Below are positions 1-5,683 of a DNA stretch of 7,144 bases, piece after piece. The position numbers and the translations under genes are program-made. The DNA lies in the IMG/VR virus record IMGVR_UViG_2703718811_000004. One strand, 5' to 3'. The number at the start of each line of letters is the position of its first letter. The stretch's first letter is position 1. The notes beneath the pieces are model-generated. The model worked only from the letters and a program-made list of their open reading frames with translations, was not told where the DNA came from and made no database searches. The stretch is from a virus (Duplodnaviria; Heunggongvirae; Uroviricota; Caudoviricetes).

Positions 1-2179
1 TCATAGTGTGCTGCCGCCTTACCCTTAGCCCTTCACGTACCGGTGCTGTCGCGTTCTGCGCATCCGGTGACGGCAGACCACGACGAACCATTTCACCCTC
101 GAGTGTTTCCCCCTGGCGACCAGCGGCGTTTTCCGGTGCCGGAGCTTGTCCTTTCTGGAAACTCTGGCCCTTAACCTCACCGGTTGTGGTAAAACGACCA
201 CCACGTCCGGCCTGATTCTCATCCGGCGTACGCGCCACCTCTCCCGGTAACGGATATCCCTGTCCGGGATGAATATCGCCGGGAGCGGGCAGGCGTGGAC
301 GCTCAGTTAACTCCTGTGCTGTCGGACCGGCATCACCTTCAGCCATCTGTGAACGTACAAGCTCCTCCGCCGTCGGCGCATTGCCACGGGCAAGGCGGGC
401 CTGTACCTCCGTATCATCCCCCGTGAAACCACGGAATCGCGGGTCACGCATGAACGCGGGCTGCTCCATCGGGTCAGCATCAGCAATACGCTCTCCGTCA
501 GCCAGGGTGTTAATGGTTTCCGTTGCCACATCTTCAGAGAACGCAGGATTATCCATTTCAACGGCATACTGATTCTCGCCTTTCTTCACTACGGACGGTT
601 TCAGGCCGGTGGCGGCGGCATTACGGAAAACATCACTCCCCATGGCGCTTTTCTCATCCGTGAAATAACGGTTGTCCGGGCGCACCTTTTCAATGCGTTC
701 CGCTGGTCTGGACGCACCATTCCCGTTAATTTCAATGCGGACTTCATTCGGGTCCCGGAACCGCACCGTCGGGTAAATGCTCCCGTTACCATCCTCCGCA
801 TTTTCAGGCTGTGACTGTGCTTCCGGCGTCACTTCCTGTTGCGGGGCTGCGTCGTCCTGCTGCACGGTTTCAGCATCACGCATGGCGGTTTCTTCTGCGG
901 CCTGACGTCTGCCACGATATCCGGCAACCGCACCGGATGGAGCCCCCATCGCAGCACCAAAGGCTGCACCTTCGATCGTTGCGTCAGCCACGCCCTCCCA
1001 CGGTGACACATCCATTCCGGCGGTCTCACGCAATGCCGTGTTTTCCTGATAGCGTGAATAGCCGCCCTGCGCCGCATTAATCGCCCCCTGTTCCGTGGCA
1101 TTTCTGACAATGCCGCTTTTAACGGTCTTCGCTGTGCCTCGTGTCACCAGATTAAACAGTTGTGCGTCACCCAGTTTTGCCGCCATGGCATTCACAGCCA
1201 GCAATTCAGGATCGGTTGCCAGCTGCGCGCGCACCTCATCGGCAACACGCTCTTTTGCCAGATCCATTTTCTGGCGATCAGTAAGCTGTGCGTGCTGCGG
1301 GTCGGCGTCAATGGACAAAAACGTCTGCTGAAATTTCGGTGACTGCGCCAGCTCAGAGTAATCCGCATTAAGAACAGCATCTGCTGCCGCCATTGCACTC
1401 TGCCCCTGTGCACTGGCTGTGGAATGGGTGATCAGGCCCGCCTGGAATAAATCCGGCATTTTTTTATCGACAGCTTCTGCTGCCAGTGCCGTGGCTCTTT
1501 CCGGCTGCATCCCTGCCGCGATGTATTTTTTCTCCAGCCCGGCGGTCAGCATTTTTCGCAGTGTGACATCACCCACCTTTTTAGCCACACCGCCAACAAC
1601 CATATCAGGTACAAGCGCACCAATCAGGTTTACACCCTTCGCCACCCAGACCGCAGAATCATCATAGCCTTCGGTCATCGGCGTATTCAGCGCACGAACT
1701 GCACCCGGCGACATCTTACCGGTCAGCCATTCATCAGTGGCTTCAGCACCATCACTGACAGCCTTACCGGTTGCCTTCAGACCTTTACCGACAGTATCAG
1801 TAACCGCGTTTTTGCCATCAGGCAGGGTATCGATGACCTCATCAGCCCCCCTGCTGCCACCGGCAAAAATATCCTGCACAGTTGCGACACCCGGCAGCCC
1901 CATACGGCTGAACTCATTTAAAATACGCGCCCCTGTTTTTACCGGGCTCTGAATCATCGCATCACCGAGTCCACGGGCCATTTCCCCTGTTCCCCGGACG
2001 GACTGGGCGAAACCTTTACCCATTGTTGGCAATACATCGCCCAGGCTGAACGACGTACTGTTATCCTTCCAGCGATTCGGATCAGAGAAAAATGCTTCAT
2101 AGCTGTCAGTTTCGCCGGGTTGCTGAATGTTCAGGCTGTTACGATTCTGGTTGCGGGAATTTCTCACCACACGCTGCAT
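1..2179 (-). CDS. Large hypothetical protein, 5' portion only (over 725 codons in window; stop codon lies beyond position 1). Ala/Gly/Asp/Glu-rich with a polar Ser/Asn/Gln-rich N-terminus. Function unknown.
   Basis: Manual translation of the minus-strand frame whose codons are plus-strand triplets starting at positions congruent to 2 mod 3 (e.g. 2-4, 1079-1081, 2177-2179): no stop codon from 2314 down to 1. The ORF track omits it because it has no in-window stop. The five short minus-strand ORFs listed for 25-1413 are all one alternative frame broken by stops. Candidate starts: ATG 2177-2179 (no good SD) or in-frame GTG 2201-2203 preceded by GGTGAGAG. Start of translation: MQRVVRNSRNQNRNSLNIQQPGETDSYEAFFSDPNRWKDNSTSFSLGDVLPTMGKGFAQSV... 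No motif I can assign to a family. Confidence 0.75.
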   Translation of the reverse strand, partial: MQRVVRNSRNQNRNSLNIQQPGETDSYEAFFSDPNRWKDNSTSFSLGDVLPTMGKGFAQSVRGTGEMARGLGDAMIQSPVKTGARILNEFSRMGLPGVATVQDIFAGGSRGADEVIDTLPDGKNAVTDTVGKGLKATGKAVSDGAEATDEWLTGKMSPGAVRALNTPMTEGYDDSAVWVAKGVNLIGALVPDMVVGGVAKKVGDVTLRKMLTAGLEKKYIAAGMQPERATALAAEAVDKKMPDLFQAGLITHSTASAQGQSAMAAADAVLNADYSELAQSPKFQQTFLSIDADPQHAQLTDRQKMDLAKERVADEVRAQLATDPELLAVNAMAAKLGDAQLFNLVTRGTAKTVKSGIVRNATEQGAINAAQGGYSRYQENTALRETAGMDVSPWEGVADATIEGAAFGAAMGAPSGAVAGYRGRRQAAEETAMRDAETVQQDDAAPQQEVTPEAQSQPENAEDGNGSIYPTVRFRDPNEVRIEINGNGASRPAERIEKVRPDNRYFTDEKSAMGSDVFRNAAATGLKPSVVKKGENQYAVEMDNPAFSEDVATETINTLADGERIADADPMEQPAFMRDPRFRGFTGDDTEVQARLARGNAPTAEELVRSQMAEGDAGPTAQELTERPRLPAPGDIHPGQGYPLPGEVARTPDENQAGRGGRFTTTGEVKGQSFQKGQAPAPENAAGRQGETLEGEMVRRGLPSPDAQNATAPVREGLRVRRQHTM

Positions 2180-2314
2180 ATACCGGAGAATTTTTTCACT
2201 CACACTCTCACCACAAAAAAGAACAATGTGACTGTGCTGTGTCTTCAGCGACAGAAGGATGACGGAGAACGCTTCCGATAACCAACACGGCTGGCGTTCT
2301 CCGCAAAAAATAAA

Positions 2315-3517
2315 TTACCAGCCGACAGACATACCCGCAGCAACACCTGAACCGTTCTGGGTATCCCATGAAGCATTCAAACGTACAGCAGAATTTTCAG
2401 TGGTGCGGAAGTGCATACCTGCTGCGATAGCCTGCTCATCACGGTAGTTACTTGCAGCCATACCAAAGGAGTACGTTTTACCCTCAACAACAGGAATGGC
2501 AGTCATCGCCATTGCTCCTGCAATACCTGCATCTGCACGTTTACGGTTTTTCTCCACCTCATCACGTAACTGACGGAATTGCTGATTAGTACTACGCTCC
2601 AGGGTACTGACCCGGTTATCTGTGTAGGTATTAGCAGACTTCAGTGTCTGTGCATCACCCTGAATACGGGCATTCTCTTCTGCAATACGATAGCGCTCTA
2701 ACTGACCATAGGTTGCGGCATCCGCAGCCTGAACACCATCACGAAGCCCACCAATTACACGATTCCCCACATTAACTTCATCGGGGCGAGTGGTCTGAGA
2801 GTTAGCCCCTACAGCAACACTGTTCGTATGGTTTGCAATGGCGTTGTAACCGACAGCAGTGGCGTTTTCTCCGCCTGCCGTTGCCCCGCCACCAACCTGA
2901 GTTTTACCGGTGCCCAGAGATGACAGACGGGCGTGAATATCTGTTACATCTGCAGCAGAAAGACCAGTGTCAATAGTGGCTCCATATTGCACAGCCTTCA
3001 TTTTAATTTCATAAATATATTCACTGATTTCAGGAATATGTCTTGAATATGTTTTTCCATCAGCGCCTACAGTCGAGACAACTCCTTCGCCATCTGCACT
3101 AAACAGAATTTGCTTGGTTTTTGTGTTTACAAAATAAGCTGTCTCATTCGCGTAATCATAATAAGAGACGATGTCTCCCCTTGGAGCAGCTAACTCGGTA
3201 TCTGTCAGGCCAGCCTTACCATAATCAATTAAGGTATATTTCAAATATTTACCGGAAACAGCGTCTATATTTAATGAGGTTGGTGTATTCCCGTCAAGAG
3301 AAATAACCTTACCATTCTCAAGCTTAATTAATGGATATCCATCTTGTTTATATACACCGATACCTTTCAAGAAATCCGCATGCTTTATTGCATTACTATT
3401 CAGAGTTTCAGGTGTAACGGAATAACCACTGGCATACGCCCCGACAGAAAATACCGACAGGCTTAATGCCGGCATTAAAGCCAACAATAGCTTGCTTGCC
3501 TTTTTCATGATTTTCAT
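2315..3517 (-). CDS. Trimeric autotransporter adhesin (YadA/Eib family), 400 aa: signal peptide, atypical N-terminal domain, short YadA-like head/neck repeats, coiled-coil stalk, C-terminal YadA membrane anchor.
   Basis: ORF-track protein. N-terminus MKIMKKASKLLLALMPALSLSVFSVGAYA is a Sec-type signal peptide. Head-repeat-like motifs ATAVGYNAIANHTNSVAVGANSQTT and neck-like DEVNVGNRVIGGLRDGVQAADAATYGQLE. Charged heptad-like stalk (RYRIAEENARIQGDAQTLK...RQLRDEVEKNRKRADAG). C-terminus AGIAGAMAMTAIP...YSFGMAASNYRDEQAIAAGMHFR...GVAAGMSVGW matches the YadA anchor pattern ending in GxSVGW. SD-like AAGGG about 8 nt upstream of ATG 3517. Family assignment is from memory of YadA/Eib sequences. Confidence 0.9.
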   Translation of the reverse strand: MKIMKKASKLLLALMPALSLSVFSVGAYASGYSVTPETLNSNAIKHADFLKGIGVYKQDGYPLIKLENGKVISLDGNTPTSLNIDAVSGKYLKYTLIDYGKAGLTDTELAAPRGDIVSYYDYANETAYFVNTKTKQILFSADGEGVVSTVGADGKTYSRHIPEISEYIYEIKMKAVQYGATIDTGLSAADVTDIHARLSSLGTGKTQVGGGATAGGENATAVGYNAIANHTNSVAVGANSQTTRPDEVNVGNRVIGGLRDGVQAADAATYGQLERYRIAEENARIQGDAQTLKSANTYTDNRVSTLERSTNQQFRQLRDEVEKNRKRADAGIAGAMAMTAIPVVEGKTYSFGMAASNYRDEQAIAAGMHFRTTENSAVRLNASWDTQNGSGVAAGMSVGW

Positions 3518-3780
3518 GATGTGTACCCTTATGTTAAATCATGTTATAAATATGTTGACATTCGGAACGCAAATGTCTTCAGGGATACTACTCACAATAA
3601 CAAGGCAAATAAAATATTAAAATCAATGAGTTAAGAAAAATTAACAATTAAAATCACAAGGATGCAATACGCATCAAAAACTTCCCCTAAATAACACCAG
3701 TATTACTCAGAAAAAACAAAACATTTTCTGTAGTTATTATTTACCATTGATAAATATTACCTCTCTCTGTCAGCCTGCAT
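3518..3780 (-). promoter_or_regulatory. AT-rich upstream regulatory region of the adhesin gene (putative promoter and 5'UTR; plausible target for nucleoid-protein silencing).
   Basis: Very AT-rich non-coding stretch (e.g. caaggcaaataaaatattaaaatcaatgagttaagaaaaattaacaattaaaatcacaag) directly upstream of the adhesin start. Candidate sigma70-like elements on the minus strand are TTGCGT then about 19 nt then TATAAC, ending about 25 nt before the ATG. No ORF of 60 aa or more on either strand. Promoter position not verified. Confidence 0.3.
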
Positions 3781-3837
3781 TGTATAAAACATACTCTGCA
3801 AACAGGTGCCATATCGGCTGAACCTCAGCAACCAGTT

Positions 3838-3859
3838 GACGGGGACTTTCGTCCCCGTC
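3838..3859 (-). other. Perfect stem-loop (9-bp GC-rich stem; loop GAAA on the minus-strand transcript) 10 nt downstream of the Hok-like stop codon.
   Basis: Plus strand gacggggac-tttc-gtccccgtc (3838-3859). On the minus-strand RNA the loop is GAAA, a GNRA-type tetraloop. No U-tract follows on the minus strand, so it is more likely a structural or processing element than a canonical terminator. Confidence 0.5.
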
Positions 3860-3868
3860 GCGGTTTTC

Positions 3869-4009
3869 CTACTGCTTACACTGTAAGAACGCCGCAAACT
3901 CCGCTCCCCACAAATTCAGCCGGAACTCACACAGTGAACCGTGCAACATCCAGATAGTGAAGATAACCGTCATACAAATTGTGACGGTGATAAGCGATTT
4001 TTGCGACAT
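3869..4009 (-). CDS. Hok/Gef-family type I toxin-like small membrane peptide, 46 aa.
   Basis: Manual translation from ATG (plus 4007-4009) to TAG (plus 3869-3871): MSQKSLITVTICMTVIFTIWMLHGSLCEFRLNLWGAEFAAFLQCKQ. It has a single N-terminal hydrophobic helix followed by the family-typical SLCE motif and a C-terminal E-x-AAF-x-x-C-K pattern (compare Hok/HokA-type peptides recalled from memory). Strong SD AAGGAG (plus 4019-4024) 9 nt upstream of the ATG. Below the ORF track's 60-aa threshold. Confidence 0.7.
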   Translation of the reverse strand: MSQKSLITVTICMTVIFTIWMLHGSLCEFRLNLWGAEFAAFLQCKQ

Positions 4010-4240: not shown

Positions 4241-4975
4241 TCAGAATTTCAGGCCAATGCCAGCAGTAACGCCACTCGTGCGCCAGTCGCCAGAGCCGGA
4301 ACCTTCGTAAGCCACATCCAGTGTAACACTCTCATTCAGGTTAAACTGTGCACCTGCAGCCCACGCAAGGGAGGTTTTTTTCGTGCTGTTGCTTTCAGAA
4401 AATCCGCCACTACTGTTAATATTGTCCTTAATTTTCAGGTCAGCGCTAACTTTAGCAACGCCCATCCCTGCCATCGCATATAAACTCATGTACTGATTAA
4501 CCCGCCATGAAGGCCCCGCTAACAGACTCCAGTAATTCGCCCTGATATCCGTTCTGGCAGAAGCTGCCGGATTCTTAATCTTCCTGGTATGATCGGCTGA
4601 CTGCACATCAATAAATGTCTGTGAGTTAGTGAGAGAACGCGTCCATGTAAAAGAGGTGATAACGCCAAAATCATCCGTTATCTCGTAGCGATACCTGATA
4701 TTAATGCCCTGTGGATTTTTATCCTTGCCTTCATATCCACTGACCCGACCATCTGTATATTCGCCCAATGAAGAAAAGTAGTTTCTGTTGACGAAATGAC
4801 TGAAAGTCTCCCTGTTATGAGCAGTCGCATCCTTTACAAAATCCTTCAGTCCCGGAAACTGAAAGTGCGCATACCCCAGAGAAATTGTATGGTTTCCTTC
4901 TGCTGCATGTGCAGATAAATTTACACAGGCAATCCCGGAGATTGCACACACAACCAGTGTTGCTATACTCTTCAT
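4241..4975 (-). CDS. lom: Lom/Ail/PagC (OmpX) family outer-membrane beta-barrel protein, 244 aa.
   Basis: ORF-track protein with signal peptide MKSIATLVVCAISGIACVNLSAHA. C-terminus VAYEGSGSGDWRTSGVTAGIGLKF closely matches lambda Lom's C-terminal AYEGSGSGDWRTDGFIVGVGYKF (from memory), with a terminal aromatic residue. SD AGGA about 6 nt upstream of the ATG. Longer than lambda Lom (about 206 aa), so probably has extended loops. Confidence 0.9.
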   Translation of the reverse strand: MKSIATLVVCAISGIACVNLSAHAAEGNHTISLGYAHFQFPGLKDFVKDATAHNRETFSHFVNRNYFSSLGEYTDGRVSGYEGKDKNPQGINIRYRYEITDDFGVITSFTWTRSLTNSQTFIDVQSADHTRKIKNPAASARTDIRANYWSLLAGPSWRVNQYMSLYAMAGMGVAKVSADLKIKDNINSSGGFSESNSTKKTSLAWAAGAQFNLNESVTLDVAYEGSGSGDWRTSGVTAGIGLKF

Positions 4976-5065: not shown

Positions 5066-5683
5066 CTAATCATATACTGATGTATTAATAACCAGGACCT
5101 TATCTATATACGGCTTTCGAATATCCCATGTTGCACCGCCGGAATAATGCTCACAGGAATATATTTTATTTCCTGTAGCACCAGTGGATGTGGTATAAAT
5201 CGGTCGATCATAAGGAGTTCTTTTCCAGTTATAATACCCGACCAGTGCAGGCATGATTGCGCATGGATATCCAAGGTCCTTTTCAAATTTGATATCAACA
5301 GGTATTAACTTCGCGTCAAGCAGCATCATTTCGCCATGATAAATCATCTCACCGTCCGGGTTATACATGGCGATACCATACTCAGAAGGTGGAGTAACCA
5401 TATTCGCGAAAGCATAAACCGTCGTAACACCAGGGTTCGTTCCCCTGACAATTACATGAAGCCTTAGTGCATGATATCCATCAATCTGTTCATGCGTGTA
5501 CATGACATCGGCCTTCTTCTCTGTTCTGATAAAGAAAAAACAACTTTTGCCTGACGGGATTGATGTTTTAAAAAAAGACTTTTCAGTCGCCGGTATGGTG
5601 CCTTTGTTGATCAGACACTGCGGCGTAAAACCTGGACTTATCCATACGCTGCCATCCGGCTTCATAATGCTCAAACCATACAT
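5066..5683 (-). CDS. Hypothetical protein, 205 aa, made of two tandem copies of a ~100-aa domain of unknown function (prophage accessory gene).
   Basis: ORF-track protein. Internal repeat: residues 1-100 begin MYGLSIMKPDGSVWISPGF and residues 101-205 begin EYGIAMYNPDGEMIYHGEM. SD-like GGGGA 8 nt upstream of the ATG, inside the end of the preceding ORF; only 5 nt separate the two genes. No signal peptide. Lower GC than flanking structural genes. Confidence 0.7.
   Translation of the reverse strand: MYGLSIMKPDGSVWISPGFTPQCLINKGTIPATEKSFFKTSIPSGKSCFFFIRTEKKADVMYTHEQIDGYHALRLHVIVRGTNPGVTTVYAFANMVTPPSEYGIAMYNPDGEMIYHGEMMLLDAKLIPVDIKFEKDLGYPCAIMPALVGYYNWKRTPYDRPIYTTSTGATGNKIYSCEHYSGGATWDIRKPYIDKVLVINTSVYD

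Follow-up and report, generated by a model that had tools for sequence, protein, structure and literature searches.

LEE-negative STEC lack the intimin system and their attachment is only partly understood, with Saa among the few adhesins that have been assigned to them. Saa, the STEC autoagglutinating adhesin, was reportedly described by Paton et al. in 2001 on plasmid pO113. The protein has been associated with autoaggregation and with HEp-2 adherence that is blocked by antiserum, no role in serum resistance has been shown for it, and the copy number of its stalk repeat differs between saa strains (PMC7247748). EibG-like trimeric autotransporter adhesins (TAAs) have been surveyed in 13 STEC genomes (Kotaka et al., Nat Commun 2026; PMC13534694). 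There, JNEC-KY STEC genomes were queried by BLASTp with EibG, and two Saa-related clades, which group with Saa and not with Eib and in which the saddle is absent, were named Yal, for 'function unknown adhesin-like' (PMC13534694).

The gene described here lies on the minus strand of the window, by which we mean the whole 7,144-nucleotide stretch of DNA that was analysed; it corresponds to an entire draft contig, LOIL01000075.1 of assembly GCA_001607685.1. Positions 2315..3517 form a single unbroken open reading frame (ORF) of 400 codons that can be divided as follows.

2315..3517, minus strand: complete TAA gene (ORF, Pfam anchor and head, full-length collinearity with Saa of pO113)
3431..3517, minus strand: putative Sec signal peptide, residues 1-29, MKIMKKASKLLLALMPALSLSVFSVGAYA followed by SGYS (direct reading of the sequence)
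3257..3430, minus strand: hypervariable tip of the N-terminal domain (N-domain), residues 30-87, recognised by allele divergence; GC 0.36
2909..3256, minus strand: conserved core of the N-domain, residues 88-203, predicted beta-meander plus helices; GC 0.40
2783..2908, minus strand: minimal YadA-like head, residues 204-245, three 14-residue turns (Pfam YadA_head, alignment with EibD 2xqh)
2693..2782, minus strand: neck, residues 246-275, EVNVGNRVIGGLRDGVQAADAATYGQLER, aligning with the EibD neck GTRVLGGLSDGTRNSDAATVGQLNR and with the Saa neck
2486..2692, minus strand: predicted coiled-coil stalk, residues 276-344, with one Saa 37-residue repeat, ARIQGDAQTLKSANTYTDNRVSTLERSTNQQ... (Saa comparison, AF2 helix)
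2318..2485, minus strand: YadA-type membrane anchor, residues 345-400, four beta-strands per chain (Pfam PF03895)

PGAP places the start at 3508 (MKKASK, 397 aa, WP_062874162.1), three codons downstream of the ATG at 3517, to which the better Shine-Dalgarno sequence belongs (AAGGG, 8 nt upstream); the choice between the two leaves the mature protein unchanged. An identical protein is present in GCA_001607685.1 (contig LOIL01000075.1) and in GCA_020319715.1. The presumed signal peptide proceeds from MKIMKKASK through a hydrophobic core to AYA in front of a serine, an A-x-A type site at which, judged by eye, cleavage would fall after residue 29, and every allele compared keeps it. At the opposite end of the chain, PF03895 (YadA_anchor) matches residues 345-400 with an E-value of 1.2e-11 and a score of 45 against a cut-off of 22.7, and the top PDB sequence matches to the protein are likewise anchors (Hia 2gr7 and 3emo, YadA 2lme, AtaA). 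The YadA, BimA and Ata models of NCBIfam also match the C-terminal half, all of them below threshold. The Pfam YadA_head match covers residues 214-240 (E 6.8e-06), the head aligns with the final turns of the EibD head in 2xqh, and its turns read as a left-handed beta-roll. The stalk comprises 69 residues of Saa repeat. GC content varies along the gene, the N-domain having 0.36-0.40 and the head, stalk and anchor a higher 0.50-0.54. All three TAA hallmarks, namely a YadA-type anchor, a Sec signal peptide and a stalk with neck and head, are present, and we take the ORF, from its sequence, to be a real and intact trimeric autotransporter adhesin. The compact TAA with anchor, stalk and short head/neck that had been proposed in the original prediction is thus borne out by the Pfam and PDB matches. 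Matches to the stalk end and anchor are also found at the C-termini of 'tail' and 'adhesin' proteins from dozens of lytic phages that infect enterobacteria, Aeromonas or Erwinia, for example phiEco32 (NC_010324.1 69721-70017), Aeromonas phage D3 and Salmonella phage SKML-39.

Comparison with the saa gene of pO113 (NC_007365.1 143552-145153) places the protein within a described family. BLASTP of the translated saa gave 44% identity across residues 18-316 (8e-76) and 71% identity over 139 residues of the stalk end and anchor (1e-65). Searching plasmids with tblastn returned roughly 55% identity across residues 47-400 on many E. coli plasmids where the gene is annotated saa, and among named proteins the C-terminal half is matched most closely by partial entries annotated 'autoagglutinating adhesin Saa'. 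The N-domain, roughly 175 residues overall, is collinear with Saa residues ~25-200, and the two have the motifs YYDYA.E.AYFV, ILxSxDG.G.V and HIPEISEY in common at an identity of 20-45%, with 45% in the core. Full-length collinearity with Saa and the presence of one Saa stalk repeat argue for a short Saa-family protein, Saa-type and not Eib-type, and the N-terminal domain that had been called 'non-canonical' corresponds in this alignment to the N-domain of Saa.

Residues 30-200 gave zero Pfam matches even at E<=10 and nothing credible among PDB sequences, which upholds the proposal of an N-terminal module without the usual YadA head repeats. The further idea that the module is distinct survives in part: it is not made of YadA repeats, but it is not unique to this protein either, since it is common to Saa. 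It is to that extent a previously described head variant, the domain having been known in Saa since 2001 with its fold and ligand uncharacterised. When 1.84 billion representatives were searched with a profile of the N-domain, this E. coli family and one outside protein (P0012) were retrieved, and no genus besides that of E. coli had a detectable copy; Saa is missing from the result presumably because it falls into the same 50% cluster as the family. P0012 (1105 aa) is built from a unit of some 95 residues (VFDYAGTLATFTLVDDGGSGN...) that recurs about nine times almost unchanged and meets positions 38-87 of the profile (50 positions) nine times, weakly, with a summed E-value of 1.8e-10. We rejected it as an N-domain relative, judging the match to be a spurious likeness in composition or beta-strands to a Cna-B-like repeat. 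Within PHROGs the family is phrog_10464, of 'unknown function'.

Structure prediction with AF2 was performed on monomers only, without the trimer context. The model of residues 30-196 (pLDDT 67, pTM 0.67) features two short helices and a hairpin in the tip (residues 30-87), predicted with low to medium confidence, and a core in which a five-strand antiparallel meander (~116-160) would be followed by helices 162-175 and 188-195 (pLDDT 63-86). The full-length monomer was modelled poorly (pLDDT 44), yet it retained the same N-domain secondary structure and added a single long stalk helix (~267-334) and four anchor strands. Because AF2 confidence is modest and the models lack their trimer context, we grade a new fold for the N-domain as possible.

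The Eib-type label attached to the protein in the original prediction, together with the immunoglobulin binding that it implied, is not supported. An Eib-type protein would be expected to capture IgG/IgA Fc with its stalk and to make its host serum-resistant. The gene is indeed prophage-borne, like eib genes, serum resistance seems widespread among STEC TAAs, and EibD (2xqh) appears among the PDB matches with an E-value of 1.2e-06, aligned from the last beta-roll turns through the neck to the first stalk turns. However, this alignment stops at residue 310 of our protein (chain residue 209), early in the stalk, the EibD stalk construct is not among the PDB matches at E<=1, and a stalk of one repeat leaves no room for a saddle. 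The saddle and the immunoglobulin-binding stalk segments of Eib proteins find no counterpart here, and EibD matches only the head and neck of a protein to which Saa is far closer over the whole length. Serum resistance is not a trait to which Saa has been shown to contribute (PMC7247748), and the Cla proteins, which are nearer to Eib than our protein is, already lack Fc binding. What speaks further for an Eib connection is a weak, collinear 39-column match of the N-domain to the NTDs of EibC/D type (hhalign E 0.013, probability 3.4%), for which an HMM scored 10-11.6 bits compared to a maximum of 6.7 in 300 shuffles. The same HMM scored nothing on the other Eib NTD types, and the N-domain profile found no Eib protein among the 1.84 billion representatives. 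We regard this 39-residue likeness as a hint of remote homology, and consider Fc binding by an Eib-type stalk quite improbable.

The genomic setting of the gene is best seen in the nearest complete genome, that of E. coli ST866, where it is annotated as a 'YadA-like family protein' in a 933W-like (Sepvirinae-type) prophage. Its neighbours there are Hok/Gef and Ail/Lom genes on one side and, on the other, small hypothetical genes followed by a giant LPD5 gene. The corresponding features of the window are the following.

2213..3804, minus strand: insertion cassette of 1.59 kb (ST866 prophage aligned to Stx phage 75/02, which is without the TAA gene)
3869..4009, minus strand: Hok/Gef (MokW-like) type I toxin, 46 aa (PGAP in ST866; PF01848; phrog_251)
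4241..4975, minus strand: Ail/Lom family outer-membrane protein, 244 aa (Pfam PF06316, E 1.6e-32)

Homology to Stx phage 75/02 ends cleanly at both edges of the cassette, which stands in place of 7 nt and by its insertion deprives a 133-aa ORF of its first 16 codons. The cassette contains 102 bp downstream of the ORF, the ORF itself and a 287-bp AT-rich upstream region (3518-3804), with a GC content of 0.43. In 933W-like Stx phages, the cassette with the TAA gene lies in the cargo region, to which lom and hok also belong.

Several observations concern the neighbouring genes. A GC-rich hairpin (3837-3860) lies directly past the stop codon of Hok/Gef, and Rfam at the gathering threshold found no RNA family in the window, hence no Sok-type antisense RNA beside hok. 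Residues 88-244 of the Ail/Lom protein match positions 48-199 of the Pfam Ail_Lom model and the first ~85 residues lie outside it; the protein may have a divergent or extended N-terminal half. Two further conserved minus-strand ORFs of the cargo region, 5066-5683 and 5689-5967, accompany lom in every related Stx phage examined. Neither has a Pfam or NCBIfam match, and PHROGs assigns the former to 'membrane associated protein' (phrog_425, moron category) and the latter to 'outer membrane protein' (phrog_557).

The gene product might also be considered a virion component. It would then be a tail fibre or a receptor-binding protein whose C-terminus resembles YadA, of the sort annotated in lytic phages such as the phiEco32-like ones. 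Tail-fibre genes are located nearby on the same strand, and many phage genes called 'tail protein' or 'adhesin' match the C-terminal 100-125 residues with 33-45% identity. Yet virions assemble in the cytoplasm, and this protein features a Sec signal peptide and a complete outer-membrane anchor. Furthermore, most of the closely related, viable Stx phages do without the gene, their site being empty, its immediate company consists of the cargo genes lom and hok, and the relative nearest to it is a bacterial adhesin encoded on plasmids. Its placement beside lom and hok, taken together with the signal peptide, argues for a lysogenic-conversion gene, and we see only the slightest chance that the protein is a part of the virion.

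With respect to the intact ST866 prophage, three segments are missing from the window contig.

Junction 838-845: in-frame deletion of 315 nt in the LPD5 gene
Junction 2149-2152: deletion of ~3.2 kb with five small genes and the LPD5 start
Junction 6747-6767: deletion of ~4.7 kb of tail genes

We rejected assembly artefacts as the source of these junctions, since identical ones are found in a second, independent assembly, GCA_020319715.1 (ABCZAI010000075.1), which points to a defective prophage lineage and not to misassembly. Despite the deletions elsewhere, the lom-hok-TAA block is 99.96% identical to that of the intact ST866 prophage. The 3.2-kb deletion produces an in-frame fusion (window 2-2179, minus strand) in which the first 10 codons (MQRVVRNSRN) of the small ORF downstream of the TAA gene join the interior frame of LPD5; the fused frame is open to the contig end, 771 codons in total.

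The gene was found in 20 of 5426 complete E. coli genomes, with 29 matching places, all of them chromosomal. It is intact in all 20, at nucleotide identities of 89-99.8%, and its position in the prophage is constant among the complete genomes examined. It is commoner in drafts, with 258 and 317 distinct sequences in its two 90% clusters and a single allele occurring on at least 1000 contigs. The members of these 90% clusters are all from E. coli and all generically named. The gene is present in the clinically common O128:H2 and O146:H21 lineages, and its tip exists in three or more variants. Only one of the 50,697 deposited phage genomes contains it, that of the Stx1c phage phiSTEC1589. In this record (PQ600364.1 45015-46226) the gene is mislabelled 'terminase large subunit', and lom appears as 'virulence determinant Bor', the 205-aa membrane-associated protein as 'endopeptidase Rz' and small ORFs as 'portal protein', labels that look like annotation errors.

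To compare alleles we used the window gene and the genes of five complete genomes, which together form at least three allele classes; the tip alleles are of the ST866, STEC1590 and FHI_NMBU_10 types. Between classes the stalk and anchor are identical (100% nucleotide identity), and the head and neck agree in 96-99% of nucleotides. Nucleotide identity is 76-84% in the N-domain core (dN/dS ~0.15; dS 0.6-1.1) and 41-45% in the tip, the first 58 mature residues, where amino-acid identity is 21-30% and dN/dS 0.6-0.95. The N-domain core is under purifying selection. Taken as a whole, the allele sequences point to recombination in which N-domain cassettes that are old and diverged were combined with a C-terminal half of recent common origin, and to a constrained core beneath a freely varying distal tip, as would be expected of an exposed binding or recognition surface.

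These data also bear on whether the gene is silent or decaying cargo, carried along with the prophage and either unexpressed or undisplayed. A promoter scan upstream of the gene revealed no convincing sigma-70 promoter, the AT-richness of the upstream region is what one typically sees in DNA silenced by H-NS, the prophage in the window contig is defective and no phenotype has been reported for the protein, all of which would suit such cargo. Set against this are an ORF that is intact in every complete genome examined, the low dN/dS of the N-domain core between alleles that have already diverged to a dS of 0.6-1.1, the allele present on so many contigs, and a cassette that stayed intact while adjacent structural genes were deleted. 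Selection on the core and intactness in 20 genomes argue for a functional gene and not a chance ORF, and we consider silent cargo unlikely.

The reading we prefer, with a probability of roughly 78%, is that of a surface-displayed, prophage-carried adhesin of the Saa family, encoded by a lysogenic-conversion gene of 933W-like Stx phages. It starts from what is seen directly, namely the gene, its domain order, the Saa homology, the cassette-like insertion and the allele mosaic. From there we infer export, trimerisation, fold and all function, largely along the lines of known TAAs. The 29-residue signal peptide would send the chain through Sec, after which three C-terminal four-strand segments would combine into a 12-strand YadA-type outer-membrane barrel. 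The passenger would then be threaded outwards and fold as a trimer, with a one-repeat stalk, the neck, a three-turn beta-roll and the distal Saa-type N-domain following one another from the membrane outwards. In the N-domain itself, a conserved beta-meander-plus-helix core would bear the hypervariable tip. By analogy with Saa, the protein would be displayed on the surface as a homotrimer whose distal head most likely mediates bacterium-to-bacterium aggregation and epithelial adherence, and the gene would act as a lysogenic-conversion ('moron') gene beside lom and hok. Two features might set its function apart from that of Saa. The stalk is ~150 residues shorter than in pO113 Saa, and the head may therefore not project past a long O-antigen or capsule. 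In addition, since identity between the two N-domains is just 20-45%, ligand specificity may differ from that of Saa.

A Saa relative inside Stx-type phages would link the acquisition of an adhesin to that of the toxin, and strain-specific aggregation or host tropism could be due to the hypervariable tip. As a more speculative extension, to which we give less than even odds, the Saa-type N-domain may be a TAA head module of new structure, common to Saa and the phage-borne family and perhaps distantly to Eib NTDs, the distal ~60 residues of which would be swapped as cassettes between alleles, and it would be spread by Stx phages together with toxin genes. Should this be true, a single transduction would supply a LEE-negative E. 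coli with the toxin and at once with an adhesin or self-recognition determinant that is strain-specific. We know of no solved structure and no family model for the shared N-domain, and solving it once would annotate Saa, the present family and several hundred generic 'hemagglutinin' or 'YadA-like' entries. The current understanding of TAAs is unchanged by this gene, and the main point of interest is the structure and ligand of the shared N-domain.

Among the known systems, YadA of Yersinia has the anchor, the neck and the 14-residue head repeats in common with our protein, but its head consists wholly of beta-roll repeats, whereas here three turns suffice and the head is mostly Saa-type N-domain. 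The Eib proteins (EibA, C-H; EibD 2XQH) are likewise prophage-borne, with a YadA-like head, neck and anchor and an extra N-terminal domain before the beta-roll. They differ in a long beta-roll and in a stalk where a right-handed coiled coil, the saddle and a left-handed coiled coil follow one another and where the Fc sites for IgA/IgG are located. Our protein has no detectable equivalent of any of these, and the eib genes occupy prophage contexts different from that of our gene. Four of the genomes surveyed by Kotaka et al. (KY171, KY174, KY176 and KY202, the last with locus tag AC0J0B_RS13300) have the TAA gene, which therefore probably belongs to the Yal clades; the gene would then already be catalogued not only under a generic name but probably also under the name Yal, in a survey that probably includes it and lists its function as unknown (PMC13534694). 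In the text of that survey, plasmid and chromosomal location is given only for YalA, and we found no statement of location in a Stx-phage cassette, of N-domain collinearity with Saa or of an allele mosaic (PMC13534694).

The closest system is Saa, which has the same order of N-domain, three-turn YadA head, neck, stalk of 37-residue repeats and anchor, and which, like our protein, is hosted by LEE-negative STEC. Saa of pO113 is 534 aa long compared to 400 aa here, and the stalk repeat (ARIEGDAQTLKSANTYT...) is present in five tandem copies in the former and in one in the latter. The signal peptide and N-terminal tip are unrelated to those of Saa (~20% identity), and Saa is not the name that PGAP gives to the protein. 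Saa is encoded on a large virulence plasmid, whereas the gene described here is chromosomal, in a Stx-type prophage, and direct comparison of the flanks of the two genes revealed no nucleotide homology. Since residence on a plasmid is customary for the Saa family without being part of its structural definition, we class the protein as a divergent family member, new or only just catalogued, that is distinct from Saa itself.
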